Source: a virus. From it: a stretch of 13,630 nucleotides of DNA. This document shows, piece by piece, positions 1 to 13,630 of this stretch. The position numbers and the translations under genes were made by a program. The stretch is from the UHGV virus genome UHGV-0353144; one strand, 5' to 3'. Each line of letters begins with the position of its first letter. Position 1 is the stretch's first letter. The notes below the pieces were generated by a model that ran no database searches, was not told where the DNA came from, and saw only the letters and a program-made list of their open reading frames with translations.

Positions 1-716
1 GCCCACATCAGTGGCTGACGTCGCGCCCCCATCCCGGTAAGCATCGTGGTGTAAAGCGCATCGGTGGCGTGCTCGTGATATTCATCCACCACCGCACAGT
101 GGGGTGATGAACCATCACCGGGGTTACCGATCAGCGGTTCAAACCGCGCGCCATCCTCCGGACGATTCATGTTTGAGGCGTTAACCTCAATCCCGAACGC
201 TTCCGTCAGCATGGGTGTGCGTTTACACATCAGTCGCGCCGGGCGAAAGACTTCCCATGCCTGTTTCTCCGTCGTGGCACCGGAATACACTTCCGCGCCG
301 AACTCGTTATCACAGGCAAAACAATACAGGGCGACACCGGCAGAGATTGCTGATTTGCCGTTCTTACGGGGGATTTCGGTATACACCTCCCGGAAGCGGC
401 GCAGCCGGGAGCCTTTATTGACCCAGCCAAACGCGCAGCAGATCACAAAGAGCTGCCACGGCTCCAGCGTGATGGGCATCCTCTTGAATGCCCACTCACC
501 CTTGGTGTGCGGCAACAGCTGAATAAATTTGGCGGCCCGTTCAGCCAGGTCCTTGTCGAAGCGGTAACGAAACGACTTACTTTTTTCCGCCATCAGGTCA
601 TCAAGATGGCGCTGGCAGGCCTGAATCACAAACTGGCAGACCACAATCTTTCCGCGCACGACATCCCGGGCATACTGATTGGCAGCATTTACGTTGGGGT
701 AAGATTTCCGGCTCAT
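1..716 (-). CDS. terminase large subunit, N-terminal ~238 codons (gene continues past the window start)
   Basis: Minus-strand frame from ATG at 716 is open to position 1; I checked every codon in that frame by hand and found no stop. Translation begins [29 protein letters not shown] and contains the P-loop-like motif EIPRKNGKS seen in HK97-type large terminases. ATGA overlap with the stop of the upstream small-subunit gene. Absent from the ORF track because it has no stop in the window. Confidence 0.8.
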
Positions 717-1207
717 GATTCGATAATTTTCAGAAACGGGTTAGTGGCTTTCTTCTGCCCCGCCAGGCCAATCAGACGCTGGCGGCTGCTGGGGTCGAGT
801 CCGAGCATTGCCCCCGTGCTGCTCATCTCGGACTCCTGTTCTTTCTTGGCGGTCAGCTCCGGATTTTTGACCATACCGCCCATTGCACCGGTGATGGTGT
901 TGCCCTGGCTGGCAATATTTTTCACGGCACGTCGCCAGAACTCATAGGCTACGCACCACCGCTCAAGCACCGCGAGGTCAGTCACGCACAGCAGGCCCTG
1001 ACCGCAGAGTTCTTTGGTTGTCAGTTGCCACATGATCGTGGCGAGAGGGAGATTTTCTTCTGCGAACCACTCCGGTGGCTCAACGCCTTTGATGGGCGTA
1101 AAAACAGGTTCATCTTTGTTCAGGGCTCGCTTGCCGGGGTTTCCGGCCAGCGCCTTGCGCGCCGTTGGCTTGGGGCGACGCCCGGAACGCCCCGCCGTTC
1201 CAGCCAT
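713..1207 (-). CDS. terminase small subunit (HK97-like packaging module)
   Basis: ORF-track ORF 713..1216 starts at GTG; the ATG at 1207 has a GGAG Shine-Dalgarno about 8 nt upstream. Basic N-terminus [18 protein letters not shown]. Sits between the HNH gene and the large terminase. Confidence 0.7.
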
Positions 1208-1257
1208 ATGCGGCACTCCTGGTTAAATTTCATTTTTCGCGGGTATAAAAAAACGAT

Positions 1258-1306
1258 GGGGCGGGCAGTCCGGAAGACGTCAGGTCACAGGGATTTGACC
1301 CGCCCC
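1258..1306. repeat. GC-rich inverted repeat GGGGCGGG (1258-1265) / CCCGCCCC (1299-1306); candidate cos/packaging site
   Basis: Perfect 8-bp inverted repeat in the 115-nt HNH-TerS intergenic gap, followed toward TerS by an A/T-rich stretch. HK97-type phages place cos between the HNH gene and terminase small subunit. Confidence 0.3.
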
Positions 1307-1332
1307 TCCCCTCTGGCAGTGGGAACTGGTTC

Positions 1333-1683
1333 TTACTTCAACCGTTCACGGGCCGTCTTCGCCTTATGACACGGCCAGCACAGACTCTGCAGATTACTGT
1401 CGGCATCAGTGCCGCCATGCGCTTTAGGGATGATGTGGTCAACGGTTTTCGCTTCACGCACCACACCGGCACGCAGGCACAACTGGCACAGTCCTTTGTC
1501 ACGCTTCAACACACGCACGCGGATAACATCCCACTTCGAACCATAACCGCGCTGGTGACGGGACTGACCTGGCTTATATTGCGTCCAGCCTTCGCTTTTG
1601 TGGCTTTCACAATAGCCTGACGGATCTGTGGTGGTATGGCGGCAACCGCGAACACGGCAGGCTTTTGGGATTCGTGGCGGCAT
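1333..1683 (-). CDS. HNH endonuclease (terminase-associated)
   Basis: 116-aa ORF with Cys-rich N-terminus (CRVRGCRHTT...YCESH) and the HNH core DHIIPKAHGGTDADSNLQSLCWPCH. Lies immediately upstream of the terminase genes, as in HK97 gp74. Confidence 0.9.
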   Translation of the reverse strand: MPPRIPKACRVRGCRHTTTDPSGYCESHKSEGWTQYKPGQSRHQRGYGSKWDVIRVRVLKRDKGLCQLCLRAGVVREAKTVDHIIPKAHGGTDADSNLQSLCWPCHKAKTARERLK

Positions 1684-2036
1684 ATGTACTAATCTCCGAT
1701 TTATCCAAATTTCACTGCCATAATGCCGACATTCTCTGCCATTGTTGGCTCCGTTTATCCGTTAAAAGGGATATCAGTTAAGTTATCCCGTGTAGGGTAT
1801 AAGCCATTGTCGAGACCACTCATTGAATGGTCTCTGCAATAACCGATGTCTTTCCATCAGTCCGCCACCACAAAGAATCTTTTTTGCCATAAGGCTGGAG
1901 GTTCATCTTTCAGTGGCTGCCAGTGTTATTTCCCCACTTACTGGCTTGGGTTGTATCGCTGTACTGCCGTAACTGGTTACCCAGAATAAATTCCGGTTTC
2001 ATTATCAAGCCCACCCGTAGATGGGCTTTGTAATGG

Positions 2037-2294
2037 CTACTTCGCTTTTGCTTCCGCTCGCTTACGCCGGCGCTCTTCTTTCCTCTCGGCTTTTGCCATG
2101 TCCATGAATGCCTGCATGATCGAGTTCCGCATCATGTAGCTAACAAAGTGATGATTGACACAGCCGTTGAGGCGCAGCTGCTCGCCAAACTCATCCACCG
2201 AGGCCAATGCTTCCATCATGCCCTTCTCGCCTTTCATGAACTCTGAGAAGTCGCGCCCCGCTCTGGAGGCGCATTCAATGACACGATCACTCAT
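2037..2294 (-). CDS. hypothetical protein (85 aa), translationally coupled to the upstream KilA-N gene
   Basis: ORF-track ORF 2037..2294. Its ATG overlaps the stop of the KilA-N ORF (ATGA at 2291-2294). Lys/Arg/Glu-rich C-terminal tail (AKAERKEERRRKRAEAKAK). No family recognised. Confidence 0.5.
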   Translation of the reverse strand: MSDRVIECASRAGRDFSEFMKGEKGMMEALASVDEFGEQLRLNGCVNHHFVSYMMRNSIMQAFMDMAKAERKEERRRKRAEAKAK

Positions 2295-2788
2295 CCCGGA
2301 AGCCCGGGGATCGTAATCTGCAGCTGGTTAGCCAGGGAGTTAATCTCAGCGACCAACACTGGCTTCGTATAGCGCCATGCCGCCAGCCCTTGTCCGCAGA
2401 AGCTCGCCATGTCTTTCTTCTGGTCAAACTCATGACATTTCATGTTGAGCTGCGCACTTAAGCTGTTGCGATGCTGAAGTTCTCCAGTGAAGTAGTCATC
2501 GAGGACTTTATAGGCCGCGTACTTGAACCCGGGGTTTAACCAAGCCGCATAATCGTAAGCAACAAACTTCCCGCCATATGTTCCACCGTGTACACCGCGC
2601 TCAGTAAAAACCACAGATTCGTGGTTTTTCTCCAGCTCGGCTAAGAACTCTTTGGTCTGCTTGTTTCGCAGGTAGTGGTACGGAGATTCAGATTCACTTT
2701 TACCACTGGCTTTCCACATATCAGTGAGGCAGATCATTCCTGATTCATCAACACGGATCGGTGTATTAAAAAGCGTGATTGCTTTCAT
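2291..2788 (-). CDS. KilA-N (APSES-like) domain protein
   Basis: ORF-track ORF 2291..2824 begins at a GTG with no SD. The internal ATG at 2788 has an AAGG SD and gives N-terminus MKAITLFNTPIRVDESGMICLTDMWKASGK, which resembles the KilA-N DNA-binding domain from memory. Start assignment is uncertain. Confidence 0.6.
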   Translation of the reverse strand: MKAITLFNTPIRVDESGMICLTDMWKASGKSESESPYHYLRNKQTKEFLAELEKNHESVVFTERGVHGGTYGGKFVAYDYAAWLNPGFKYAAYKVLDDYFTGELQHRNSLSAQLNMKCHEFDQKKDMASFCGQGLAAWRYTKPVLVAEINSLANQLQITIPGLPG

Positions 2789-2930
2789 AGCGTCTTTACC
2801 TTTTAGAAAGTGAGCCTGTCTCACAGAAAAGCCGCCCGAGAGAGGTCGCCACCTATAACGGCATTTCTCAGGCTCGCTTACTGAAAGGCTCTCGTTAATA
2901 TGCGCGTGAGATGCGCGTTTACTGCGGACA

Positions 2931-2955
2931 TAAAAAAGCCCCGCATCGCGAGGCT
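2931..2955 (-). terminator. putative intrinsic terminator downstream of Rz
   Basis: On the minus-strand RNA: stem AGCCUCGC / GCGGGGCU (8 bp including one G-U), loop GAU, then UUUUUUA. Lies about 30 nt after the Rz stop. A loop of 3 nt is tight, so the stem may be 7 bp with a 5-nt loop. Confidence 0.45.
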
Positions 2956-2986
2956 CATTAAATGGACTTTGTGATTTGCAAAAAAA

Positions 2987-3454
2987 TTATTTCGGGCATT
3001 GCGTCCTGATGTATTCCTGAAGCGTTCTCAGTGCTGTTTGGTCGCGGATAATTCCGTCCCGGATACCGAGAACGTTTCGTCCAGCAACTGGAGAGAGTTC
3101 GACGGAGGCATCATTGCCCATGCCGGAGGCGCTGGAGGTTTCGGCTGAGGATGGCATAGGGCATTTTCCTTTGACGAGCACCCTACCACCATTATCAAGC
3201 TCGCGCCGAAGAGCATCATTTTCAGCTTTCGCATCAGCTAACTCCTTCGTGTATTTAGCATCGAGTGCATCAGCAGTACGCTGGCGCTGCTGCATGTCAG
3301 TAATGGTGGCAGTCGCCTGCTTCAGCTCACTGCCTTTTTTATCGCGCTGCTCTTTGTAGGCGATGGCGTTATCACGGTAATGATTAACAGCCCATGACAG
3401 GCAGACGATGATGCAGATAACCAGAGCGGAGATAATCGCGGTGACTCTGCTCAT
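2987..3454 (-). CDS. Rz: Rz i-spanin
   Basis: ORF 2987..3454. N-terminal ~85 aa ([31 protein letters not shown]...[19 protein letters not shown]) match lambda Rz as I recall it; the C-terminal part diverges. ATGA overlap with the R stop. Confidence 0.85.
3028..3234 (-). CDS. Rz1: Rz1 o-spanin, embedded in the +1 frame of Rz
   Basis: ORF entirely inside Rz. Strong SD AAGGAG 8 nt upstream of ATG at 3234. Lipobox MVVGC followed by a proline-rich segment ([11 protein letters not shown]), as in lambda Rz1. Confidence 0.75.
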
Positions 3455-3927
3455 ACCTCAATCTCTCTGACCGTTCCGCCAGCCTCTTTGAATTTTGCAA
3501 TCAGGCTGTCAGCCTTATGCTCTAACTGGCCATAACCAGCGCCCGGCAGTGAAGCCCAGATATTGCTGCAACGGTCGATTGCCTGACGAATATCACCGCG
3601 GTCAATCATCGGTAAAGCGCCACGCTCTTTAATCTGTTGCAGAGCTACAGCGTCCTGGCTTTCTGGAGAAAAATCTTTCAGGCCAAGCTGTTTACGGTAA
3701 GCATCCCACCAGCGTGAAAGAAGCTGGTAACGTCCGGCTGCTGTTGATTTGAGTTTTGGGTTTAGCGTGACAAGTTTGCGAGGGTGATCGGAGTAATCAG
3801 TGAATAGCTCTCCGCCAACAATGACGTCATAACCATGATTTCTGGTTTTCTGCCGTCCGTTATCAGTTCCCTCTGACCACGCCAGCATATCGAGGAACGC
3901 CTTACGTTGATTATTGATTTCCACCAT
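3451..3927 (-). CDS. R: endolysin (lambda R-type lytic transglycosylase)
   Basis: 158-aa product [39 protein letters not shown]... is near-identical to lambda R by recall. Overlaps the S gene end. Confidence 0.95.
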
Positions 3928-4234
3928 CTTCTACTCCGGCTTTTTTAGCAGCGAAGCGTTTGATAAGCGAACCTATCGAGTCAGTACCGATGTAGCCGAT
4001 GAACACGCTCGTTATATAAGCGAGATTGCTACTTAGTCCGGCGAAGTCGAGAAGGTCACGAATGAACCAGGCGATAATGGCGCACATCGTTGCGTCGATT
4101 ACTGTTTTTGTAAACGCACCGCCATTATATCTGCCGCGAAGGTACGCCATTGCAAACGCAAGGATTGCCCCGATGCCTTGTTCCTTTGCCGCGAGAATGG
4201 CGGCTAACAGGTCATGTTTTTCTGGCATCTTCAT
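3911..4234 (-). CDS. S: holin / antiholin (lambda S-type, class I)
   Basis: 107-aa product [39 protein letters not shown]... is near-identical to lambda S by recall, including the Met1-Lys2-Met3 dual-start motif. Confidence 0.95.
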
Positions 4235-4353
4235 GTCTTACCCACAATAAGGGGATTTGCTCTATTTAATTAGGAATAATGTCTATTACTGATAGAACAA
4301 ATCCAGGCTACTGTGTTTAGTAATCAGATTTGTTCGTGACCGATATGCACGGG

Positions 4354-4389
4354 CAAAACGGCAGGAGGTTGTTAGCGCGACCTCCTGCC
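4354..4389 (-). other. strong RNA hairpin in the late leader (10-bp perfect stem), possible attenuator/terminator
   Basis: Stem GGCAGGAGGT (4360-4369) / ACCTCCTGCC (4380-4389) with a 10-nt loop; on the minus-strand RNA it is followed by GUUUUG. About 130 nt upstream of S. Confidence 0.4.
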
Positions 4390-4634
4390 ACCCGCTTTCA
4401 CGAAGATCATGTGTAGAAGGCCGCAGCGTAACTATCACTGATGAATTCAGGATAGCCAGTGGCTACGGCTCAGTTTGGGCTGTGCTGTTGCTGGGCGGCG
4501 ATGACGCCTGTACGCATTTGGTGATCCGGTTCTGCTTCCGGTATTCGCTTAATTCAGCACAACGGAAAGAGCACTGGCTAACCAGGCGCGCCGACTCTTC
4601 ACGATTATCGGCTCAATGCTCTTACCTGTTGTGC

Positions 4635-4679
4635 AAACAAAAAAGCCACCGTTGCAACTTAAGAGTCACTAACGGCAGC
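4635..4679 (-). terminator. tR'-like intrinsic terminator of the short late-promoter transcript
   Basis: On the minus-strand RNA: GCUGCCGUU ... AACGGUGGC (9-bp stem with two G-U pairs, 17-nt loop) followed by UUUUUUGUUU. The equivalent plus-strand pairs would be C-A/A-C mismatches, so the structure is strand-specific. Positionally matches lambda tR' (flanking sequence GCACAACAGGTAAGAGC as I recall it). Confidence 0.55.
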
Positions 4680-4689
4680 TTACCCTCTA

Positions 4690-4719
4690 ATTATGGCTAA
4701 ATGGCTAATTGCATGTCAA
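4690..4719 (-). promoter_or_regulatory. late promoter PR' (sigma70) overlapping the 3' end of the Q-like gene; presumed qut region
   Basis: Minus strand: TTGACA (4714-4719), 18-bp spacer, CATAAT (4690-4695). The -35 lies in the last codons of the Q-like ORF and the Q stop TAG sits in the spacer. Predicted start is ~45 nt upstream of the tR'-like T-run. Confidence 0.55.
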
Positions 4720-5215
4720 GGTTTTTAACAGCAACATGCTTAACTTTCTCAACACGTTTACGCATTTTGAAAGCATTTTGCATTGGTTGGTACAAAACAA
4801 ATAATGACGCTTTCAGGATGTCGTCAATTTCATTTCTACAGGTTGCCAGTGAAGGTTTTCTCCATCCCTCGCCACCACGTCCACACATCTTGCGTGGCTT
4901 TGCAGTCGCGTGATAGTAGGATGCAATTGCTCGCTTAGATGAACCATGAGCGTAGTAGCTGAGGAGGATGCCAAAGGCTTTCTTGTCAATGTACATGACG
5001 GAATCGACGACCTGAGAAATCAACATTCCATCATCATCATTGCACATTGGCCTTGTCATAACTCTTCCCGGCTCTACGCTCTCCATGAACTTCGCTATTA
5101 CGCTGCTCATGCGCTTTTCCAGACGACCTGAATAAACCCATGCGCCCCACAGTTCAAGCCAGCCATTCAGCCACTCGTGCTGCTCTTTGGTGAGGTTTAG
5201 TTCTCTTATGCCCAT
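4697..5215 (-). CDS. putative late-gene antiterminator (Q-like, not the lambda Q type)
   Basis: 172-aa ORF occupying the Q position: overlaps the ninI stop at its 5' end and carries the PR' -35 at its 3' end. Sequence is unlike lambda Q as I recall it, so the call is positional only. Confidence 0.5.
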
Positions 5216-5877
5216 GCGCCTTCTCCCTGTACCTGAATCAATGTGAGATTTCCGCAGAACACTGCGCCGGTATCGATATACATCTGGTTGGCAAATTTGA
5301 GTGGTTTCACTGCTGGCGTATGACCAAAGATGAACGTGTCCGCGCCTTTGATTTCTTTCACGATCCCGTCTTGTGAGTTGCTGATTCGTTCGCGGTTCCA
5401 GATTACCTGCTGATGATCAACTGGCTTTCCGAACTCGTATTCATCACAAGGATAATCGGCGTGGCAGATGATATATTTTTTATCTTTGCTCACCAGTTCG
5501 ATGATTAACGGAAGTTCATCTGCTTTATGGGCAAGAGCTTTAGCCAGAATTTCTTTGTCGTAATCGAGATTAAAGAACCAGCCACCGCCATTAAGCAGCC
5601 AGTGATTGACGTTTCCACGCTCTGATAAGCCATCAATCATCATTTGCTCATGGTTTCCACGTACAGCTATGAACCAGGGGAATGTGATTAATTCCAGGCA
5701 TTCAACGTTCTCTGTACCGCGATCGACCAAATCGCCAACCGAGATAAGCAGGTCTTTTTTGGTGTCGAATCCTATCGTCTCCAGTTTTTTCATCAGGTTC
5801 GTGTAGCATCCGTGCAGATCGCCAACTACCCAAATATTTCGGTATTTGCTGCCATCAATTTTTTCGTAATAGCGCAT
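5206..5877 (-). CDS. ninI: Ser/Thr protein phosphatase (lambda NinI / PP-lambda type)
   Basis: ORF 5206..5952; ATG at 5877 with GGAG SD gives [29 protein letters not shown]...GNHE, the calcineurin-like metallophosphatase motifs. Near-identical to lambda NinI by recall. Confidence 0.95.
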
Positions 5878-6061
5878 CTCTTTCACTCCATCCGCGATGA
5901 ACCATGAGAACGTCGTTGACGATGGCGTGCATTTTCCCGTCTTTATCATCAACGTATTTTCTGACCGTACCGCGACTACATTTCAGTCTGCGTGCCACTT
6001 CTGTCTGGTTTCCGTATGCTTCAACGAGCATGTCTGGAATGGTTTTTACTGAGAACGTCAT
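5855..6061 (-). CDS. ninH: NinH
   Basis: ATG at 6061 gives [68 protein letters not shown] (68 aa), matching lambda NinH by recall. ATGA overlap with the rusA stop; 23-nt overlap with ninI as in lambda. Confidence 0.85.
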
Positions 6062-6453
6062 GCGGCCTCCAGTAGCTCTGTAATCATTGGCAAACTCCCG
6101 CATGTTTCAGTCACAACCAACACAAGCATTCCACCTTTAATCGCCTGATAGCGCTTGATGCGCATATCGTCTATCTGACCGTCATCCAGCCAGAAGCCCG
6201 CACTGGTGAGTGCGTCAAAAACGGCTTTGGGCAGATTGTCCAAATCTCGTTTGCGGTTATCGGGAGGTGCTGCGTGGATGGTTATTCTGATGCGAGGTGT
6301 GATTTTGATGTCTAGCTGTTGTTGCTGGATTATTTCGATTACTTCTTTTCGGTATCTCTCCCCCCAGTCGCTGATGTAGTGGATCCCTCTTGAGTGTCGC
6401 CAATATCGGTTGTTTGAAGGAGGCCACGGCAATTTTATTCGGTAGGTTTTCAT
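6058..6453 (-). CDS. rusA: RusA-type Holliday junction resolvase
   Basis: 131-aa product MKTYRIKLPWPPSNNRYWRHSRG...RDLDNLPKAVFDALTSAGFWLDDGQI matches the RusA family signature by recall. Confidence 0.85.
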   Translation of the reverse strand: MKTYRIKLPWPPSNNRYWRHSRGIHYISDWGERYRKEVIEIIQQQQLDIKITPRIRITIHAAPPDNRKRDLDNLPKAVFDALTSAGFWLDDGQIDDMRIKRYQAIKGGMLVLVVTETCGSLPMITELLEAA

Positions 6454-6740
6454 GACTTAATCTTCCCCTCCTTCAGCAGTATCGCCTGCGTCCTGATCAC
6501 GCCTTCGAGGTGGTAAAGTCTGGCGTCTTTGTTGTCGAGGTTATGGGTGCGTCGGTCGATTTCATCGTGACACGCGCTACAAGCCCATGCGCCGATCAGG
6601 TCGTCAGGCTTCATTCCCGTTCCGCAAATTCCAGCCATCCGGTAATGTGCCAGAACTGTAGTTTCAGGGTTGCCATTGCATACGCCGTAAATACGTACCT
6701 GGCATTCTCTGCCGCGTGCTTCTTTGCGTAGGTTAGCCAT
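6450..6740 (-). CDS. YbcO-like protein (DUF1364 family, putative nuclease)
   Basis: 96-aa product with RGRECQVRIYGVCNGNPETTVLAH and CSACHDEIDRRTH motifs; resembles E. coli DLP12 YbcO from memory. Adjacent to rusA as in DLP12/82-type nin regions. Confidence 0.6.
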   Translation of the reverse strand: MANLRKEARGRECQVRIYGVCNGNPETTVLAHYRMAGICGTGMKPDDLIGAWACSACHDEIDRRTHNLDNKDARLYHLEGVIRTQAILLKEGKIKS

Positions 6741-7462
6741 TAAGCAGCCTCCCCGGTTACTTTCAGCATTCCGTTATCGAGCAGCTTTCTGGTCAGCCAC
6801 TGTTGACCACGCCCGGTGATTTTTGTGGTGAACGATATCTGTATTCCGTGATTTGTGTTGACCGCTGTTTCTTTCACTGTGAAATAGCCGCGATCCATAT
6901 ATTCCTGCATTGGCACATTGCGCCGGGAACCTGAAGCAATAAGGATTTTGTGATCGCGCATCCACGCAAACAGTTTGTTTGGACCAATTCCAACAACCTT
7001 TGCAAAGTTTCCAATCAAAATTCCGCTGGCCTCGCCAACGCGATCGGCAAACTCAACTTTAGGTGCGGCAATTGCGAACTGGTTTTCCAGTTGCATTTTC
7101 TGCTCAGCAAGATCAGCAGCAAGGCGCAACGCTTCTGGTAGCGTTTTGGGGATATTAACCGCAGCTTCTTCAAGATCTCGCCAGCGGTCAACAAGGCGAG
7201 CGGTGAACTCTGGCGACAACTGGGCAACAACAACAATACTATCTCGCTTACCTTGTTCGCCTTCGAAGACGTAAGCCTCGACACTACGTCGCAGTCCTAA
7301 GTTATTGATTTTTTCGAAAACCTGCAATGCAGGAAGTTGAATAACTCCAGATTTAGCCAGGCGCTCTATTGATATTTTTACGTTATCTGGACGACTTCCC
7401 ACCAAATCAGCGATTTCAATGCTTGTCATTTTGATGGCATTGCCATTTATTAACTCATTCAT
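6740..7462 (-). CDS. phage antirepressor-like regulatory protein (Rha-type N-terminal domain + ANT/KilAC C-terminal domain)
   Basis: 240-aa ORF. N-terminus TSIEIADLVGSRPDNVKISIERL resembles the Rha family; C-terminal half (AIAAPKVEFADRV...FAWMRDHKILI...GRGQQWL) resembles the ANT antirepressor domain. Both by recall. Confidence 0.65.
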   Translation of the reverse strand: MNELINGNAIKMTSIEIADLVGSRPDNVKISIERLAKSGVIQLPALQVFEKINNLGLRRSVEAYVFEGEQGKRDSIVVVAQLSPEFTARLVDRWRDLEEAAVNIPKTLPEALRLAADLAEQKMQLENQFAIAAPKVEFADRVGEASGILIGNFAKVVGIGPNKLFAWMRDHKILIASGSRRNVPMQEYMDRGYFTVKETAVNTNHGIQISFTTKITGRGQQWLTRKLLDNGMLKVTGEAA

Positions 7463-7625
7463 CGTCTTCTTCCTCGTACATTGAGCTATTCGGATCGCTC
7501 ATCAGTTCTGCGCAGCAGTGCTCACACACGTGAACTTCCAGCACATGCAGCTTCTGACCGCAGTTAGCGCACGTTAAAGCTCGCTCGACACTTCCTTGTT
7601 CGTAACTTCGATTTTGGTCAATCAC
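7455..7625 (-). CDS. ninF: NinF
   Basis: 56-codon ORF not in the track (below its size cut-off), read by hand: (GTG)[55 protein letters not shown], matching lambda NinF by recall. GTG start overlaps the ninE stop (GTGA). Confidence 0.7.
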
Positions 7626-7804
7626 CTTGTTTTCCTCGCACGTTCTCTAAGCCACCGGATATCCCACAGGTGAGCCGTGTAGTTGAAGGTTTTTACGTCA
7701 GATTCTTTTGGGATTGGCTTGCGTTTATTTCTGGAGCGCTTCGTTGGAAGGTATTTGCAGTTTTCGCAGATTATGTCGGTGATACTTCGTCGCTGTCGTC
7801 TCAT
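7622..7804 (-). CDS. ninE: NinE
   Basis: ATG at 7804 (ATGA overlap with ninB stop) gives [60 protein letters not shown], matching lambda/DLP12 NinE by recall. The longer ORF-track start at 7864 is probably an upstream extension. Confidence 0.8.
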
Positions 7805-8244
7805 GCCGCCCTGTCTCCCCATCGCGCTTTCCATTCGAGAGCCAGTCTCGCTTCGTCTGACCACTTAACGCCACGCTCTGTACCGAATGCCTGTATAAGC
7901 TCTAATAGCTCCGCAAATTCGCTTACACGCATCCTGCTGGTTGACTGGCCTATTACCACAAAGCCATTCCCGGCAAGGTTAGGAACAACGTCCTGCTGCT
8001 TTAATGCTGCTGTAAAAACGCACTTCCAGCTTTCTGCATCCAGCCAGCGACCATGCCATTCAACCTGACGAGAGACGTCACCAAGGCAAGCCCAAAGCTT
8101 TCGATTCTGGTCTAAGCTGCGGTTGCGTTCCTGAATGGTTACTACGATTGGTTTGGTTGGGTCTGGAAGGATTTGCTGGATAGCTTGAATGGCGTTCTGC
8201 TGATGGATGGTGCTTCTTAGTTCAAACGTTAGTTTCCTCACCAT
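7801..8244 (-). CDS. ninB: NinB (Orf-family recombination mediator)
   Basis: 147-aa product [68 protein letters not shown]... is near-identical to lambda NinB by recall. Confidence 0.9.
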
Positions 8245-8386
8245 TTACGCTCCTGTAATCGTCAAGTGCAGCTGCAATAGTCCCTATCGGGTCATGGTCT
8301 TGCCCGATAATCTCATTTACGTTTTCATCTTCTTCCACACCGAAAAAGAATCGCAGGGCTAACATGATTTCTTCGTATGCGCTCAT
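8222..8386 (-). CDS. hypothetical small protein (54 aa, acidic)
   Basis: Hand-translated: [54 protein letters not shown]. Strong SD GAAGGAG 5 nt upstream of ATG at 8386. Starts 2 nt after the upstream ORF stop; its 3' end overlaps the ninB start. Confidence 0.45.
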   Translation of the reverse strand: MSAYEEIMLALRFFFGVEEDENVNEIIGQDHDPIGTIAAALDDYRSVNGEETNV

Positions 8387-8388
8387 AC

Positions 8389-8628
8389 TCACTCCTTCAC
8401 TTTGACTCCAGCAGCGCGGATGGCGCTCTGCACCTCGCTTACATACAGATATGGGGTTCGCCCACTATGCATGGTAAAGCTTTCAGGAAGCTCAATCTCG
8501 ATAGCTGCTCGCGATGCCTGCCACGCTTGCCAATACATCTCAACCATATTGGCGTATATTTTATTTTTAGGATCACATCCGGTGTAATTTTCAAACCATT
8601 CTTCAAACTGCTTTCTTGATTCGTCCAT
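8389..8628 (-). CDS. hypothetical protein (79 aa from ATG 8628)
   Basis: ORF-track ORF 8389..8652 begins at GTG; the ATG at 8628 has a GGGGA SD and gives MDESRKQFEEWFENYTGCDPKNKIYANMVEMYWQAWQ... No family recognised. Confidence 0.5.
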   Translation of the reverse strand: MDESRKQFEEWFENYTGCDPKNKIYANMVEMYWQAWQASRAAIEIELPESFTMHSGRTPYLYVSEVQSAIRAAGVKVKE

Positions 8629-8629
8629 A

Positions 8630-8845
8630 TCAATCCCCGTTAGTCGTTTCACTCACGAATCTGACAAAACCAGCCATGTTAATTTGCATGAGTTTTTTCA
8701 ACACTTTGTCTCGCCGGCTACGTTTTGGTTTTGGCCTGTGGTTGAATCTTTCACAAACTGGAAGGCTTGACGATTTCCAGTACCTATTACGCCTTGCTCC
8801 ATCTTCCGCCATATCGGCATGAATAAGGTCTGCGAGTGTGCTCAT
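8630..8845 (-). CDS. hypothetical basic protein (71 aa)
   Basis: ATG at 8845 with GGAGAGG SD (track start 8851 is GTG). Product MSTLADLIHADMAEDGARRNRYWKSSSLPVCERFNHRPKPKRSRRDKVLKK... is Arg/Lys-rich. Confidence 0.45.
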   Translation of the reverse strand: MSTLADLIHADMAEDGARRNRYWKSSSLPVCERFNHRPKPKRSRRDKVLKKLMQINMAGFVRFVSETTNGD

Positions 8846-8859
8846 ATTCACCTCTCCAG

Positions 8860-9042
8860 TTACATTGGTTTTGTAATGTTGCTAGTCATCTTACGAATAA
8901 AAAAATGCGTACGTAGCTTTGCTTCCCACATGTAAATCTCCTCAAGGCGAGATAAATCTACGAATACCGGACCTTTGTAATCTGGTCTTGATGCCCTTAT
9001 GTATGAGCTAATAGTTTGTGCATCTTGCTCGTCAAGATTCAT
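8860..9042 (-). CDS. hypothetical protein (60 aa)
   Basis: ATG at 9042 with GAGGG SD; overlaps the upstream 67-aa ORF end by 11 nt. The region is A/T-richer than its neighbours. Confidence 0.4.
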   Translation of the reverse strand: MNLDEQDAQTISSYIRASRPDYKGPVFVDLSRLEEIYMWEAKLRTHFFIRKMTSNITKPM

Positions 9043-9235
9043 GACTTCCCTCTCTAACAGATTTCAGGTTATTCCACTCCGTTACCGCACTGCGATAATT
9101 CGCGGCCGCCACAACAGCGTGGTTAGCGCAGTAGATTTGGCACCCGTTCTCCATGTCGAATATTGTCGGTGATTTTCCGCACTTACATTTTTTGGCACGC
9201 GGTGCGTCTGAACACATTCCGTTAACGGTGTCCAT
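9032..9235 (-). CDS. hypothetical Cys-rich small protein (67 aa), possible zinc ribbon
   Basis: ATG at 9235 with GAGGG SD 8 nt upstream. Product MDTVNGMCSDAPRAKKCKCGKSPTIFDMENGCQIYCANH has five Cys in the first 36 residues. First gene after the terminator that follows the helicase. Confidence 0.5.
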   Translation of the reverse strand: MDTVNGMCSDAPRAKKCKCGKSPTIFDMENGCQIYCANHAVVAAANYRSAVTEWNNLKSVREGSHES

Positions 9236-9260
9236 CAGGATCCCCCTCGTTCTTAATCCA

Positions 9261-9289
9261 ATAAAAAAGGGCTACTGTGTAAATAGCCC
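9261..9289 (-). terminator. intrinsic terminator after the helicase gene (tR2-like position)
   Basis: Stem GGGCTA (9269-9274) / TAGCCC (9284-9289) with a 9-nt loop; on the minus-strand RNA it is followed by UUUUUUAU (complement of 9261-9268). About 30 nt downstream of the helicase stop. Confidence 0.55.
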
Positions 9290-9319
9290 CTGTTATTAGC
9301 TCAGTGATGTAGATGGTCA

Positions 9320-10756
9320 TCAGAATCCTCCTTTCTTCTTGGACTGCGGTTCCTCGCGTTCACGGCGGCGCATTTCAGCAGACTGTTGGTCTGTGTCATA
9401 AATAGCGCCATTTGCCTGAATGCAATACACCGTGCCGGTATTGCCATGACGATTGAGACGAAGGATTAGTTCGGTTTCACCAGGTGGAACACTGTCATCA
9501 AAAGCGCCTTCACGATGGATCCCAACCCAATAATCGCAATCCTGTTCAATCTGCCCTGTATCTCGTGAGTCACTTGGTAATGGGCGTTTATTGGTTCGGC
9601 TTTCCAATGCGCGGTTAAGCTGCGTCAGAAGCACAACAACGCAATCAAGCTCTTTGGCAAGGTTCTTCAGTCCTTTGGTGATCATGCCGTAGGCAAGGTC
9701 GTTGCGATCGGCCTTCTCAGCGGTCATTAGTGTCAGGTAATCGACCAGAATCATGCCAACACATCCTTTTTCTCGCTTGATTCGACGGCTTTCGCTGACG
9801 ATTTGAGCCAGAGATAATCCCGGCGTGTCGTCGATGTAAAGCAGGTCGATTTCACTCAAGCGATTGGCTGTTTCGATCGCCCTGTTGAAGTCACCATCGT
9901 AATCACCCTGATAGCCGTCATCAGCGTCATTTGTCGCCGGAAGGTAAAAAATATTCGGGTTAACACCAGACTTCTGCCCTACCAGTTTTTCCAGTATCTG
10001 ATCACGTGGCATTTCAAGGCTGAACATCAGAGCGGGCTTTTTCTCATGCACTGCGCAGTTGATTGCCATCTGGCTGTATAGCGTCGTTTTACCCATCTTA
10101 GGGCGAGCGCCAATGACAAACAGAGAGCCTTTCACCAGACCTTTCGGTGACAGCATCCTGTCCAGCGATGGGATCCCTGTGCTCATTCCCCGTTGTTCGC
10201 CTGACGGGTCAAATCGCTTCTCAAGGTCGCTAACCCAGCCTTCCATGACCTCACCAAATGAGCGAAGGCCGCGACGCGATCCGGTTTTTGCATGGTCTGT
10301 CAGTTGCGTGAAAATCGCCTGAATAGCTTCGTACTTCTGCGTTGCAGTCATTCCATTGCGGGAATAGAGCAATTCCGTCGCTTCAGTCATGCGGTTGATG
10401 GCGTAGCGTTCCATTGCGGTTTCACGAACCTGCATTGCATAGGCAACAATGTTTGCTGCGCTTGGCGTGTTCTTTGCGATCTCAGCGATATAAGCAAAAC
10501 CGCCAACAGACGCCGTTAACGATTTACGCTCCAGTTCATCGAAAAGCGTCAGGCCATCTACTGGCTTTTGCTCCCGGTGCATTCTGGTTATTTCTTCGAA
10601 AAGGATTTTGTGTGGTCGGCAGTAAAATGAATCAGGCTTCAGCATCGCCAGAACTTTCTGGACGCGCTCACTGCTGTCATCATCCAGAAGCAATCCACCA
10701 ATCACCGCCTGCTCTGCCTCGATGCTATGGGGCGGCGCATAAAAATTATCGGTCAT
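9320..10756 (-). CDS. replicative DNA helicase (DnaB family, P22 gp12-like)
   Basis: ORF 9320..10771 begins at GTG; ATG at 10756 has a GAGGG SD. Walker A GARPKMGKTT and a DnaB-like N-terminal domain (IEAEQAVIGGLLLD). Start overlaps the O-like gene end by 11 nt. Confidence 0.9.
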   Translation of the reverse strand: MTDNFYAPPHSIEAEQAVIGGLLLDDDSSERVQKVLAMLKPDSFYCRPHKILFEEITRMHREQKPVDGLTLFDELERKSLTASVGGFAYIAEIAKNTPSAANIVAYAMQVRETAMERYAINRMTEATELLYSRNGMTATQKYEAIQAIFTQLTDHAKTGSRRGLRSFGEVMEGWVSDLEKRFDPSGEQRGMSTGIPSLDRMLSPKGLVKGSLFVIGARPKMGKTTLYSQMAINCAVHEKKPALMFSLEMPRDQILEKLVGQKSGVNPNIFYLPATNDADDGYQGDYDGDFNRAIETANRLSEIDLLYIDDTPGLSLAQIVSESRRIKREKGCVGMILVDYLTLMTAEKADRNDLAYGMITKGLKNLAKELDCVVVLLTQLNRALESRTNKRPLPSDSRDTGQIEQDCDYWVGIHREGAFDDSVPPGETELILRLNRHGNTGTVYCIQANGAIYDTDQQSAEMRRREREEPQSKKKGGF

Positions 10757-11645
10757 CGTGTTCACCCTCACGAACTTTCAGGTAGGTATTATCGTTAAGC
10801 AGGAAATCAAATCCCTTTTTGTGCCAGACGGTTCCGCGCTGATGGTTTGGGCGCTCTTCGAACATCCATCGGCAATTTTCGCCTACGTAGCTCAAATAAT
10901 TTCTCCAGTCCTGCATCGTGAACCCATGCCCGTCGAGCTGGCGGGTTATCACTCCGGCTTTGCGCCAGAACGTTCGGATCTGGTTTTTACGCTTGTCATT
11001 CAGTGCGCGGATTCTTGGCGCTTCAGGAAGGATTTCGTGGTAAGCATCGACAACATCCTGACAGCTAACGGAAGGTTTTTTCTTGTCAGACTTTTTGTCT
11101 GCTGTGGCACTCTCTAATACGTCAGTATTAGAGATAATATTATTATATTCTTTATCTGTGGTAATTTGCTGGTAATCTGCTGGTACAGTATTGCTTACAG
11201 GCATTGGTATTTCTGGCTTTGAGGTGGTAATTTGCTGGTAATCTGCTGGTACAAAATTTGACTGATAATCGTCATATTTCTCTACCGAGAAAACTGAGAA
11301 TTTACCGTGTGAAACCCAGTCAATCATGCCGAGTTTTTTGAACTTTCTAAGCAGGTACTGAACGCGATCTGGTTTGAGTCCTGTTTCAAACGCCAGAGAG
11401 TTTCTACCGCCAAGTAGCTTCCCTCTGCCTACCAGAATTTCTCCTGCGTCAGTCATTACATACTCAGGCGTATGCTTTGCTTTGAGGATTAAGTGAACCC
11501 ACAGATGCGCAGCTTCTGCGTCCTTGTAAAACGGCACATCCATAATTTTACGGTGCAGCAAGGCATACCCCTTACCGCTGCTTTGATGCGGTTGTTGTAG
11601 CCTTCTGGCCTCTCTGGCTTCGGCTAGATTAGATATGTTACTCAT
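10746..11645 (-). CDS. replication initiator (O-like / P22 gp18-like) containing the origin iterons
   Basis: 299-aa ORF with AAGGAG SD. Sits upstream of the DnaB helicase and contains direct repeats plus an A/T-rich tract in its coding sequence, which show up as the duplicated peptide [10 protein letters not shown]-terminal HTH-like segment. Confidence 0.75.
11131..11253. repeat. replication origin: A/T-rich tract plus two perfect 30-bp direct repeats built from 11-bp GGTAATnTGCT units
   Basis: GTGGTAATTTGCTGGTAATCTGCTGGTACA occurs at 11158-11187 and again at 11224-11253 (perfect copies, 36-bp spacer). Each copy holds tandem 11-bp sub-repeats. A/T-rich tract at 11131-11156. All inside the O-like ORF, as for lambda ori. 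Confidence 0.7.
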
Positions 11646-11784
11646 GACCTTTCTCCTTCTGCATCAGCTTCACTTTTTCCAACTCAGCCCGGAATCGACC
11701 AGGCTGCTTGAAGCTGGACAGGAAGCGATCACGTAGTATGTTTTTGTGCATTTTGTCCTGGTAAGGACTGAGTGGTTTTGTCAT
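11638..11784 (-). CDS. hypothetical small protein (48 aa)
   Basis: Hand-translated: [48 protein letters not shown]. Strong SD GAGGAGG 4-5 nt upstream of ATG at 11784. TAATG stop-start overlap with the 134-aa ORF; its stop overlaps the O-like start. Below the ORF-track size cut-off. Confidence 0.4.
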
Positions 11785-12188
11785 TAAGCCTCCTCTACTT
11801 CGTAATCAGCGAAGTAACCAGTAGACATTTTTAAAAACCTTGATTCGGTGACTGTGTAAGCCTTCCTTCCTTTCCTCTCCTTGCCTTCAGGCTCTATGAG
11901 GTGGCACGAATAAATGATTCTGCGCTGCCAGTTGCCTGGCATTTCCACCACTGCCAGAACCTCAAGAATTCTCTTTCCTTCAGCATCAGCGGTGTAAAAA
12001 CACTGATCACCATAACCACAATCGGCTGGCTCATAATTTTTGTGACAACCGCCAATCCAGCGCTCATCGGTATGCACGTTGCCGTCATAAGACTGATAAT
12101 CTGTGCATACGAAGATAAATGGATATACGGTTTCGAACTTGTCACCGGCCTTTATGCCGGTGTTTACTTGCTTGGTTTGTCCTGGCAT
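11784..12188 (-). CDS. hypothetical Cys/His-rich protein (134 aa) inserted between cII and the O-like gene
   Basis: ORF-track ORF 11784..12395 (203 aa) would overlap cII by ~170 nt. ATG at 12188 has an AGGAG SD (ACAGGAGTAATT-ATG) 34 nt after the cII stop. Product [65 protein letters not shown]... has 5 Cys and 3 His. No family recognised. Confidence 0.6.
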
Positions 12189-12222
12189 AATTACTCCTGT
12201 TACTTGGCGTAACACAGTGTGC

Positions 12223-12501
12223 TTAAGCGTCCAGACTGCTACCAACAGCTGGGCGTTTTTCTTTTGTGAGAATCGATGCCACCTGCTGAGCAAGTCTCGC
12301 CATCTCATCATCAACAACTCCCCATTCAAGAACAGCCAGAAGCATGGCCATCTTTGGGATAAAGCTGTCTTTCCATCGCGAAATTTGCGATTCATTAATC
12401 CCTAACGCGTCGGCAACCTTTCGCTGACCACGTACAGCAATTCGATTCAGGATGTTGCTTGTAATTGCATTCGCTTTCTTGCGAGTACTTGTAAGTTGCA
12501 T
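12223..12501 (-). CDS. cII: CII-like transcriptional activator
   Basis: ATG at 12501 with AAGGAA SD gives MQLTSTRKKANAITSNILNRIAVRGQRKVADALGINESQISRWKDSFIPKMAMLLAVLEWGVVDDEMARLAQQVASILT, homologous to lambda CII (shared ...SQISRWK...PK...MLLAVLEWGVVDD...MARLA.QVA.ILT) by recall. Confidence 0.85.
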   Translation of the reverse strand: MQLTSTRKKANAITSNILNRIAVRGQRKVADALGINESQISRWKDSFIPKMAMLLAVLEWGVVDDEMARLAQQVASILTKEKRPAVGSSLDA

Positions 12502-12580
12502 ATGTAAGTATTTCCTTAGATAACAATTGATTGAATGTATGCAAATAAATGCATACACCATAGGTGTGGTTTAATTTGAT
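12502..12580 (-). terminator. tR1 region (Rho-dependent in lambda) between nutR and cII
   Basis: The minus-strand sequence ...CATCAAATTAAACCACACCTATGGTGTATGCATTTATTTGCATACATTCAATCAATTGTTATCTAAGGAAATACTTACAT-ATG matches the lambda nutR-tR1-cII leader as I recall it. Rho-dependent sites cannot be confirmed from sequence alone. Confidence 0.45.
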
Positions 12581-12612
12581 GCCCTTTTTCAGGGCTGGGA
12601 TGTGTAAGAGCG
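12581..12612 (-). promoter_or_regulatory. nutR (boxA CGCTCTTAC + boxB GCCCTGAAAAAGGGC), lambda-type N utilisation site
   Basis: Minus strand reads CGCTCTTAC (12604-12612) ... GCCCTGAAAAAGGGC (12581-12595), the canonical lambda boxA and boxB hairpin, directly downstream of cro. Confidence 0.8.
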
Positions 12613-12620
12613 GGAATGTC

Positions 12621-12836
12621 TTAAGCGGCTTTGTGTTCCGGCGGGAACACGTCATCAAGACTGACTTTTGCGCCTAACTTGTTTAGGCACTCAACAAGAG
12701 CACGGCATGTTTTAAGGTCTGGGAAGCGACGACCAGATTCCCAATGTCCGATAGCTCCCTGTGTGCATCCAACTGCCTTAGCAAGTGTTGTTTGAGAGAT
12801 ATTCAGTGACTCTCGATATTTTCGTAGGTTGCTCAT
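12621..12836 (-). CDS. cro: Cro-like repressor (HTH, XRE-type)
   Basis: ORF-track ORF 12621..13007; ATG at 12836 with GGAGGG SD gives MSNLRKYRESLNISQTTLAKAVGCTQGAIGHWESGRRFPDLKTCRALVECLNKLGAKVSLDDV (71 aa). Divergent from cI across the operator region. Shares the TQG-IGHW recognition-helix motif with the cI N-terminus. Confidence 0.75.
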   Translation of the reverse strand: MSNLRKYRESLNISQTTLAKAVGCTQGAIGHWESGRRFPDLKTCRALVECLNKLGAKVSLDDVFPPEHKAA

Positions 12837-12947
12837 ATGCCCTCCATAGTAACCATGAAACAATAATACGATATGTACTTTTAGAATGCAAACAAAAAAT
12901 ACATCTTGTGCATGGATGGTTTTAGTACAGAGCGTAATAATAAGGGT
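12837..12947. promoter_or_regulatory. immunity control region (OR) with divergent PR (toward cro) and PRM-like (toward cI) promoters
   Basis: Minus-strand PR candidate: TTGCAT (12886-12891), 17-bp spacer, TATTAT (12863-12868). Plus-strand TAATAAT (12935-12941) sits just before the cI ATG, a PRM-like near-leaderless arrangement. The motif TACGnnnTGTAC occurs at 12867-12878 and inverted at 12925-12936; a related copy lies at 12900-12912. Operator boundaries are not resolved. Confidence 0.55.
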
Positions 12948-13607
12948 ATGAAAATGAAATGGTATGAACTGGCTAGATCCAGAATGAAAGAGCTCGGCAT
13001 AACTCAAGAGAAGTTAGCTGAAGAGCTTGGTATGACGCAGGGTGGAATTGGTCACTGGTTGCGCGGATCTCGTCATCCATCTCTTGACGAGATTGGTGTG
13101 GTGTTTAAATACCTTGGTATTGATAACGTCTCATTCAACCACGACGGTACATTTTCACCTGTTGGCGAATACTCATCTGCCCCCGTTAAAAAACAATATG
13201 AGTACCCTGTTTTTTCTCATGTTCAGGCCGGGATGTTCTCGCCTGAGCTTAGAACCTTTACCAAAGGTGATGCGGAGAGATGGGTCAGCACAACCAAAAA
13301 AGCCAGTGATTGTGCGTTCTGGCTTGAAGTTGAAGGTAATTCCATGACCGCGCCAACAGGATCCAAGCCAAGCTTTCCTGACGGGATGTTAATTCTCGTT
13401 GACCCTGAGCAGGCTGTTGAGCCAGGTGATTTCTGCATAGCCAGACTTGGTGGTGACGAGTTTACCTTCAAGAAACTGATCAGGGATAGCGGTCAGGTGT
13501 TCCTACAGCCACTAAACCCGCAATATCCAATGATTCCATGCAATGATAGCTGTTCCGTAGTAGGGAAAGTTATCGCCAGCCAGTGGCCTGAAGAGACATT
13601 TAGTTAA
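12948..13607 (+). CDS. cI: CI repressor (non-lambda N-terminal HTH domain, lambda-type C-terminal S24 autocleavage domain)
   Basis: ORF 12906..13607; ATG at 12948 ([40 protein letters not shown]...). From [31 protein letters not shown] through [24 protein letters not shown] to the C-terminus it matches lambda cI by recall; the N-terminal ~90 aa do not. Confidence 0.9.
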
Positions 13608-13630
13608 CAGCCTCACAACTCTAAAACACA

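Follow-up and report, generated by a model that had tools for sequence, protein, structure and literature searches.

Lambdoid phages are classically defined by recombination with lambda that yields viable hybrids. Their genomes are reportedly mosaics of exchangeable modules, a view for which the sources are Susskind and Botstein in 1978, Juhala et al. in 2000 (on HK97 and HK022), Clark et al. in 2001 (on the boundary sequences of HK620), De Paepe et al. in 2014 and Kupczok et al. in 2022. Blocks of high identity alternate with unrelated modules, the junctions fall at gene, domain or regulatory boundaries where short conserved boundary sequences are found, and interacting genes and sites are inherited together. 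The same features are seen in the DNA analysed here, a stretch of 13,630 bp from the virus genome UHGV-0353144 (the window, in its full length), which is almost certainly the immunity-to-packaging right arm of a real temperate lambdoid Escherichia coli prophage with an SfV/HK97-style head module. It does not differ in kind from known lambdoid mosaicism, and only its combination of modules is absent from deposited phage genomes. The mosaicism is textbook: neither the phenomenon nor the crowding of junctions at gene boundaries is new, and boundary sequences and the likely recombination mechanism are established as well. The case therefore matters little beyond annotation, but it is a clean worked example with base-exact junctions that shows which parts are constrained to move together. 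Its practical value lies in the module-by-module annotation of a recurrent E. coli prophage and in a pointer to an uncharacterised accessory gene of 134 aa.

Among named phages, HK620 and HK022 are the best relatives of the right arm, with 98% identity over O, P and orf48, 99-100% over the KilA-N gene and orf85, and about 95% over YbcO and Roi. The C-terminal part of Rz with Rz1 is 94-100% identical to HK620, while HK022 reaches 52-71% there. HK620 differs in its lambda-type Q, its 120-aa RusA, its other immunity region and its P22-like podovirus packaging and structural genes, and it has neither ninI nor the 134-aa gene. Phage vB_EcoP-683R2 (683R2) resembles the window in the immunity core (99.8%), the 172-aa phage-21-type Q with PR' (about 97%) and the lysis genes (96.6%), and Dewey, Louie and CUS-3 share some of the same modules. 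It differs in the O N-terminal domain and iterons, in the content of the nin region, in its podovirus-type packaging and in lacking ninI and the 134-aa gene. The likeness to the Shigella phages SfV, SfII and SfIV and to Salmonella phage 118970_sal3 (96-97% over TerL and TerS, and over the HNH gene for sal3) is limited to positions 1-1685. Lambda itself shares the right-arm gene order and 93-99% identity over S, R, the N-terminal part of Rz, the late leader, ninB/E/F/H/I, nutR-tR1 and the cI C-terminal domain, yet about 74% of the window has no lambda nucleotide counterpart. The window has packaging genes other than nu1/A, its P belongs to the DnaB-type helicases and not to the helicase loaders, its Q is a phage-21-type one, NinG is replaced by RusA, YbcO and Roi, the genes ninC, ninD and ren are absent, and cro, the right operator (OR) and the cI N-terminal domain differ. 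Given 93-99% identity over several blocks of 340 to 1,440 bp, viable hybrids with lambda would be plausible.

Along the window the gene order is that of the lambda right arm throughout, and the minus strand carries all long open reading frames (ORFs) but one, cI. Features named below lie on the minus strand unless stated otherwise. From cI and the divergent cro, the order runs through nutR/tR1, cII, the replication genes, the nin region, Q, PR'/tR' and S-R-Rz/Rz1 to the packaging genes. This synteny is based on the ORF map, the annotations of matching phages, and the gene calls and Pfam families of an identical prophage locus (L023), whose gene calls also supply the gene limits used here.

The window was aligned by blastn against a panel of lambda, HK97, P22, HK620, HK022, 683R2, mEp234, 118970_sal3 and 14 prophage loci, with identity taken in 100-bp bins. 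Lambda-like sequence (at least 85% identity) makes up 23-26% of the window, in blocks of 93-99% nucleotide identity. No lambda nucleotide match was found in these bins over the packaging genes (1-1685), the KilA-N gene and orf85, the C-terminal part of Rz with Rz1, Q, PR', RusA, YbcO, the antirepressor, the small ORFs at 8236-9320, P, O, orf48, the 134-aa ORF, cro or the cI N-terminal domain. A preliminary description of the DNA had pictured a fine-scale mosaic of lambda-like and other lambdoid blocks, and the alignment reproduced every one of its block assignments: the stretches that it listed as lambda-like, the same as those shared with lambda above, aligned at 92.7-99%, and those that it listed as foreign to lambda (packaging, replication, Q/PR', rusA/ybcO/antirepressor, the immunity DNA-binding domains and the small ORFs) gave no lambda nucleotide match. 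The windowed comparison with lambda, HK97, P22 and prophages that it had proposed mapped the breakpoints, with edges then placed at the base level. At an identity of 90% or higher, eight named phages tile just 82.7% of the window, and no fewer than five donors are required. Over the whole non-self panel, the greedy donor path with the fewest switches has 16 segments. Against several relatives, blocks of at least 90% identity switch abruptly to unrelated sequence, as is characteristic of a mosaic genome.

The junctions are not spread evenly. When the ends of the high-scoring segment pairs from 20 non-self references were collapsed, 54 junction clusters were obtained, 24 of which lie no more than 15 nt from a gene edge, a zone covering 9.9% of window positions (about 5 clusters expected; binomial P=5e-11). 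Within 30 nt of a gene edge there are 32 clusters, where 18% would be expected (P=2e-11). Of the rest, many fall in intergenic DNA, and further ones at terminators, nutR, the cII start codon, the O iterons and the cI hinge; intragenic junctions are located at the cI hinge, beside the O iterons and in the Rz/Rz1 overlap. The most widely common clusters (6449, 7451, 7597/7631, 7804 and 8235) flank the conserved ybcO, ninF, ninE and ninB. The earlier claim that junctions fall at gene boundaries or in regulatory elements stands, with one correction: the tR' junction is at the U-tract and not in the stem.

Two prophage loci of the panel display the same pattern at the scale of whole modules. Over 1767-4575 and 9289-13630, locus L019 matches the window at 99.5% identity; at 4575-6449 it has a lambda-type Q module without ninI, and at 7804-9289 different small ORFs. 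Locus L017 is 98% identical across the stretch from the phage-21-type Q through ninI, ninH and rusA to ybcO. The two are sibling elements of the window, distinguished by whole-module swaps between common flanks.

Full-length copies of the window were located by looking up the exact antirepressor protein, and the contigs found show the same gene order. A draft genome contig (GCA_020689685.1) differs by 1 mismatch in 13,630 bp (99.99%), a separate metagenome scaffold differs by 2 mismatches over the same length, and two further assemblies hold identical partial copies. These independent full-length recurrences bear directly on the possibility of an assembly artefact, in which a chimeric contig would have been built from co-resident lambdoid prophages joined at conserved genes. 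E. coli genomes do carry several lambdoid prophages (median 3 matching places per genome, maximum 12), and the junctions adjoin conserved stretches where assemblers can switch copies. The arrangement nevertheless recurs with 1-2 mismatches in the two sources named, its specific antirepressor allele is indexed in 107 blocks, and every ORF is intact, with correct overlaps of stop and start codons where blocks meet. The independent recurrences effectively refute a chimera, whose probability we consider negligible, and the arrangement is therefore a real, recurrent prophage.

The near-perfect identity to prophage copies in public draft assemblies could also mean that the window is a piece of one known phage, which would make the description as a mosaic trivial. 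These collinear copies, however, represent the same element, and none is a phage already characterised. A search of 50,697 deposited phage records gave no single place with 80% coverage (HK620 came closest, with 49%), and none of 5,426 complete E. coli genomes reaches 80% (best 63% by megablast, 66% by blastn). Even eight named phages together leave part of the window untiled (82.7% at 90% identity or more), and an origin from one known phage is very improbable. Collinearity with a single known phage, named beforehand as the finding that would undo the mosaic, was not seen; only the element's own prophage copies are collinear.

At the right end of the window, the immunity core (12615..13196, both strands) holds cro (12621-12836), the OR region and the N-terminal DNA-binding domain of cI (about 12912/12954-13196, plus strand). 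It is 99.8% identical to 683R2 and 720R6 and 99.5-99.7% identical to Dewey and Louie. No lambda match was found over 12615-13196, so that the immunity is not that of lambda, and the cI C-terminal domain alone is lambda-like. This oligomerisation and autocleavage domain (13197..13607, plus strand) is of lambda/HK97 type, with 93.8% identity to lambda (13197-13601) and 94.4% to HK97. The junction lies in the hinge, at about lambda codon 102, in agreement with the PDB matches of the C-terminal domain to lambda cI (3BDN and 8GMU, the latter being the lambda cI C-terminal domain, E 2e-89). On the other side of the core, a junction between the cro stop codon and boxA leads into a lambda-type block (12499..12614) that runs from boxA/nutR (boxB GCCCTGAAAAAGGGC) through tR1 to the Shine-Dalgarno sequence (SD) and ATG of cII, with about 99% identity and 1-2 mismatches to lambda 38247-38362. 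The N gene upstream in L023 carries the lambda N family PF11438.

The next junction is exactly on the cII ATG, with lambda-type sequence upstream (boxA, tR1, SD, ATG) and HK620-type sequence from codon 2. Identity over the gene (12223..12501) is 90-96% with HK620 and 51-72% with lambda. Its 5' two-thirds (codons 2 to about 62) are of HK620/P22-C1 type, and the 3' end is of a third type. The 5' coding region holds its own PRE -35 TTGC repeats. We take the lambda-type stretch upstream of the ATG to contain the PRE -10 region and the 5' coding region of cII to contain the TTGC-N6-TTGC activator site.

Downstream of cII, the replication module (9289..11784) is of HK620/HK022 type, with 98.2-98.6% identity to both phages. 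It comprises a DnaB-like P of 478 aa (9320-10756; Pfam DnaB and DnaB_C), O (10746-11645) with the ori iterons inside it (11158-11258), and orf48/DUF2740 (11638-11784). An O-like initiator that contains iterons, and after it a DnaB-family helicase where lambda has the P loader, is the P22/HK022 arrangement, so the earlier label of a P22-like replication module holds as to type. In sequence the proteins are distant from P22, O being 25% identical to gp18 and P 31% identical to gp12, and the close relatives at the DNA level are HK620 and HK022 (98%). References 683R2, mEp234 and HCP8S3 match only downstream of 11155, adjoining the iterons. HK620-type homology stops at 9289, at the foot of a tR2-like terminator hairpin (9291-9267, from a terminator scan).

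Between orf48 and cII sits a 416-bp cassette (11784..12200) with the 134-aa ORF (12188-11784), a member of phrog_30464. The motif ACAGGAGTAATTATG (the SD/ATG motif) directly precedes this ORF. Phages P22, HK620 and HK97 have the same motif before orf48, and lambda has a very similar one before O, as was anticipated by the suggestion that an O-type SD is re-used here. At its other end the ORF meets the displaced ATG of orf48 by a TAATG overlap. The left junction (versus locus L013) is at 12200, at the SD, and the right junction (versus HK620, HK022 and P22) is at 11784. As both are base-sharp, the cassette behaves as a discrete 416-bp module.

In the nin region, ninF, ninE and ninB form a conserved lambda-like stretch (7460..8235, from the lambda alignment) whose junction clusters are common to 9-15 references. 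The block 7460-7797, with ninF (7455-7625) and ninE (7622-7804), is 96.5% identical to lambda, and the block 7801-8235, with ninB (7801-8241), is 92.7% identical. An ATGA overlap connects ninB with ninE, so that the ninC and ninD of lambda are precisely absent. The 5' junction of ninB is at codon 3, and the ninF/antirepressor junction falls on the antirepressor ATG. YbcO (6450-6740; Pfam) and the Roi/KilAC antirepressor (6740-7462; Pfam ANT) make up a block of HK620/HK97/HK022 type (6449..7460) that is 94-100% identical outside one divergent patch. This patch, of about 150 bp (about 7260-7405), is only 67-87% identical to every panel member, while the rest of the gene reaches 97-100%. It is the hallmark of an antirepressor allele peculiar to this prophage lineage.

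The RusA Holliday-junction resolvase (6058..6453; Pfam RusA) is a 131-aa variant of a protein of usually 120 aa. Its DNA is just 71-77% identical to HK97 and HK022 and 100% identical to locus L017, the only such match in the panel. Its last codons and stop (GAGGCCGCATGA) also end lambda ninG, and lambda homology resumes inside this sequence, 9 nt upstream of the ninH ATG. The resulting ninI/ninH block (5213..6069), with ninH (5855-6061) and the ninI phosphatase (5206-5877), is 97.3% identical to lambda 43032-43888 and 98.5% to mEp234. At its other end, lambda homology stops at the start codon of Q.

The Q antiterminator (4697..5215, 172 aa) is of phage-21 type. It belongs to the family of Q21 homologues (PF06530; PDB 6JNX and 6P18 at E 1e-92) and not to that of lambda Q (PF03589), and the gene is itself a mosaic: the protein nearly equals Q21 (PDB 6JNX) over residues 1-102, is about 65% identical to it over residues 103-162 and ends in a 10-aa C-terminal tail. 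The same 172-aa variant is present in 683R2, CUS-3, MS 115-1 and SFAD3, and the DNA is 97-98% identical to 683R2, CUS-3 and HK75. The accompanying PR' and tR' (4633..4719, from scan, folding and alignment) consist of a PR' promoter TTGACA-18-CATAAT (4719-4690; 11/12 positions match in a promoter scan) and a tR' hairpin with U-tract (about 4680-4640; -21.5 kcal/mol, z -2.6). The predicted PR' and hairpin accompany the phage-21-type Q in 683R2, CUS-3 and HK75 as well, and identity to the nearest relative is about 98% over 4610-5215. While the hairpin belongs to this Q unit, lambda homology restarts at the U-tract directly 3' of it. The roughly 30 nt after tR' (TGCACAACAGGTAAGAGCATTGA) are common to lambda, 683R2, SFAD3 and L019 regardless of Q type, and window positions 4633-4696, which include this junction, correspond to the stretch annotated as "bsq4; boundary sequence" in the CUS-3 record. 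No tRNA or structured RNA was reported in the window by Rfam (at the gathering threshold) or ARAGORN. The Q-S interval thus holds no tRNA or stx-type insertion, unlike that of the HCP8S3 prophage.

From the tR' U-tract a lambda-like block (3207..4644; 94.7% to lambda 44776-46213) covers the late leader, the S holin (3911-4234), the R endolysin (3451-3927) and the N-terminal part of Rz, about 82 codons. By base-level alignment, lambda homology in Rz ends about 25 nt past the ATG of Rz1 (3028-3234). Since the junction is just after the Rz1 start, the C-terminal part of Rz and the embedded Rz1 body (2987..3207; HK620/683R2 type, 94-100% to both) came together.

The packaging block (1..1685) is of SfV/sal3 type, with 96-97% identity to SfV, SfII, SfIV, 118970_sal3 and vB_EcoM-720R4, and comprises the N-terminal part of TerL (1-716), TerS of the P27/Terminase_4 family (713-1207) and an HNH endonuclease (1333-1683). 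It had been called HK97-like, which is right for protein family and gene order. The Pfam order in L023 (PF01844, PF05119, PF03354/PF20441, PF04860, PF04586, PF05065) is the HK97-like packaging and head order, and the modules run HNH, cos, TerS and TerL, then portal, S78 protease and HK97-fold capsid. The label fails as a statement of sequence: these genes gave no nucleotide match to lambda, HK97 or P22, the protein identities to HK97 are 36% over 69 aa for HNH and 25.5% over 188 aa for TerL, and TerS has no significant match. A close sequence relationship to HK97 gp74, gp1 and gp2 is thus not indicated, and both "HK97-like" and "P22-like" describe likeness at the family level only. The linear GenBank records of SfV and SfIV start exactly at window position 1274, in the HNH-TerS intergenic region (1208-1332), which places cos between HNH and TerS. 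A cos cleavage site is probably located near position 1274, in which case the window spans the ends of the virion genome.

The arrangement is very probably explained by repeated recombination among lambdoid phages and prophages that share a host cell, which yields a patchwork. Short conserved stretches, namely ninB, ninE, ninF, ybcO, S, R, the post-tR' sequence and the SD/ATG before orf48 or O, would serve as homologous crossover sites, and alternative modules would be swapped: Q of lambda type or phage-21 type, ninG or roi-ybcO-rusA, ninC-ninD or nothing, cro with the cI N-terminal domains, and the O N-terminal domains with their iterons. Rarer non-homologous (illegitimate) joins, filtered by selection, may have added to this, and the only survivors would be recombinants in which no gene, protein domain or regulatory site is damaged. 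Because of this filter, junctions would concentrate at terminators and nutR, at start and stop codons, in the cI hinge and at the ori iterons, and interacting parts would travel jointly. Co-inheritance is seen for the Q21-type Q with PR' and tR', for the lambda nutR with the lambda-type N of L023, for the O N-terminal domain with the iterons, for the C-terminal part of Rz with Rz1, for cII with its binding site, and for cro with OR and the cI DNA-binding domain.

Judging from the literature, the exchange would proceed mainly by relaxed homologous recombination in conserved flanks, catalysed by phage recombinases. Module boundaries match gene and domain boundaries (PMC3233612, citing Juhala 2000 and Clark 2001), mosaics arise mainly via relaxed homologous recombination by phage Rad52-like recombinases with orf and rap aiding (PMC3945230), and co-transfer of interdependent genes has been described in lambdoid phages (PMC9836094). 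Recombination functions are at hand in the prophage: L023 encodes an Erf recombinase, and the window itself NinB/Orf and RusA.

Several points temper this explanation. We infer the recombination events from present-day sequences, and the donor names are those of the nearest sequenced relatives and not of true parents. Beyond most edges of the lambda blocks the sequence is unrelated to lambda; therefore, for the individual joint, a crossover in a short conserved sequence is indistinguishable from illegitimate joining followed by selection. Evidence that contradicts the explanation was not encountered.

A different origin of the junctions would be a site-directed process acting at short "boundary" or "linker" sequences such as the SD/ATG 15-mer and the post-tR' 30-mer. 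Indeed, ACAGGAGTAATTATG at the left end of the cassette, GAGGCCGCATGA at the rusA/ninH joint and TGCACAACAGGTAAGAGCATTGA after tR' sit exactly on junctions, and boundary sequences are annotated in the Q-S interval of CUS-3. The SD/ATG motif, however, would be conserved anyway as a ribosome-binding site and start codon, and the other motifs contain overlapping stop and start codons or a terminator U-tract. Being conserved would by itself suffice to turn these motifs into ordinary sites of homologous crossover. We also take the complement of ATTATG in the SD/ATG motif to be the -10 hexamer of the oop promoter, and count this against a dedicated recombination site. No site-specific recombinase or homing enzyme was found associated with the motifs, and many junctions, at their base-level edges, have no common motif. 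A site-directed process is thus unlikely, in comparison with the recombination in conserved flanks outlined above. The literature treats both junction models as open, and experiments favour relaxed homologous recombination (PMC3233612, PMC3945230).

The 134-aa cassette is the only slightly unusual piece of the window. It has no match among the 50,697 phage records and is present in 2 of the 5,426 complete E. coli genomes, although the exact protein is listed in 815 assembly blocks. In each of the ten contexts examined, the gene is flanked by cII and DUF2740, while the neighbouring immunity and replication modules vary. Homologues form 26 clusters, all of them hypothetical proteins and restricted to Enterobacterales. 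The protein gave no Pfam or PADLOC match, its PHROG family is of unknown function, and no mention of its RefSeq accession was found in the literature. The AlphaFold2 model is confident and mostly beta (pLDDT 84.9). Foldseek with this model found nothing significant in the PDB (best E-value 0.44), and the BFVD search returned one unnamed viral protein only. It is conceivable, but rather doubtful, that the cassette provides a new early-expressed accessory function (e.g. exclusion or anti-defence) and that the SD/ATG motif repeatedly serves as a docking point where genes are inserted precisely at a start codon, between cII and O of lambdoid phages.

A probable oop-like antisense RNA is located at 12163-12275 (plus strand). 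Its promoter-like sequence, TTTACT-17-CATAAT preceded by TG, faces the 3' end of cII, and a hairpin there, with GGGCGTTTTTCTTTT after it, is similar to the oop terminator of lambda. The -10 hexamer is the complement of the SD/ATG motif, which may also supply the -10 of the oop promoter in this way. Rfam reported no family at 12163-12275.

Six small ORFs in total are found between P and ninB (9320-8222). The HK97-type orf67 and the ninA-like orf32 (9038..9320) are 98.9% identical to HK97 32059-32341. The others (8236..9037), identified by PHROG and Pfam, are orf54, a phiTE_015-family ORF, DUF7301 and orf60. They are not in the named-phage panel; the whole segment is covered by prophage SFAD3 only, at 95%, and Stx phages cover 8598-9054. 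In a P22-like prophage of E. coli MS 115-1 that has the same 134-aa gene as the window, the early left operon encodes a Gad1-family protein (PF25705, anti-Gabija; L012 5320-6294).

Between the packaging and lysis genes, an intergenic stretch with an 85-aa ORF (1733..2290; orf85 at 2037-2294, phrog_875 by PHROG assignment, function unknown) is common to HK97, HK620, HK022 and mEp234, with 96-99% identity to HK97, HK620 and mEp234. It is followed by a KilA-N/ORF11CD3 gene with its downstream region (2291..2955, gene 2291-2788; Pfam KilA-N 8e-16) of HK620 type at 99-100%, and by an intrinsic terminator at 2956-2936 (terminator scan). An assignment of the KilA-N protein to the candidate defence system PDC-S22 was rejected, as the partial PADLOC match is weak (7e-9 over about 45 residues) and not meaningful. 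Finally, two short patches, 1485-1571 in the HNH gene and 8408-8498 in the phiTE_015-family ORF, are less than 90% identical to every non-self reference, while their surroundings are well conserved.

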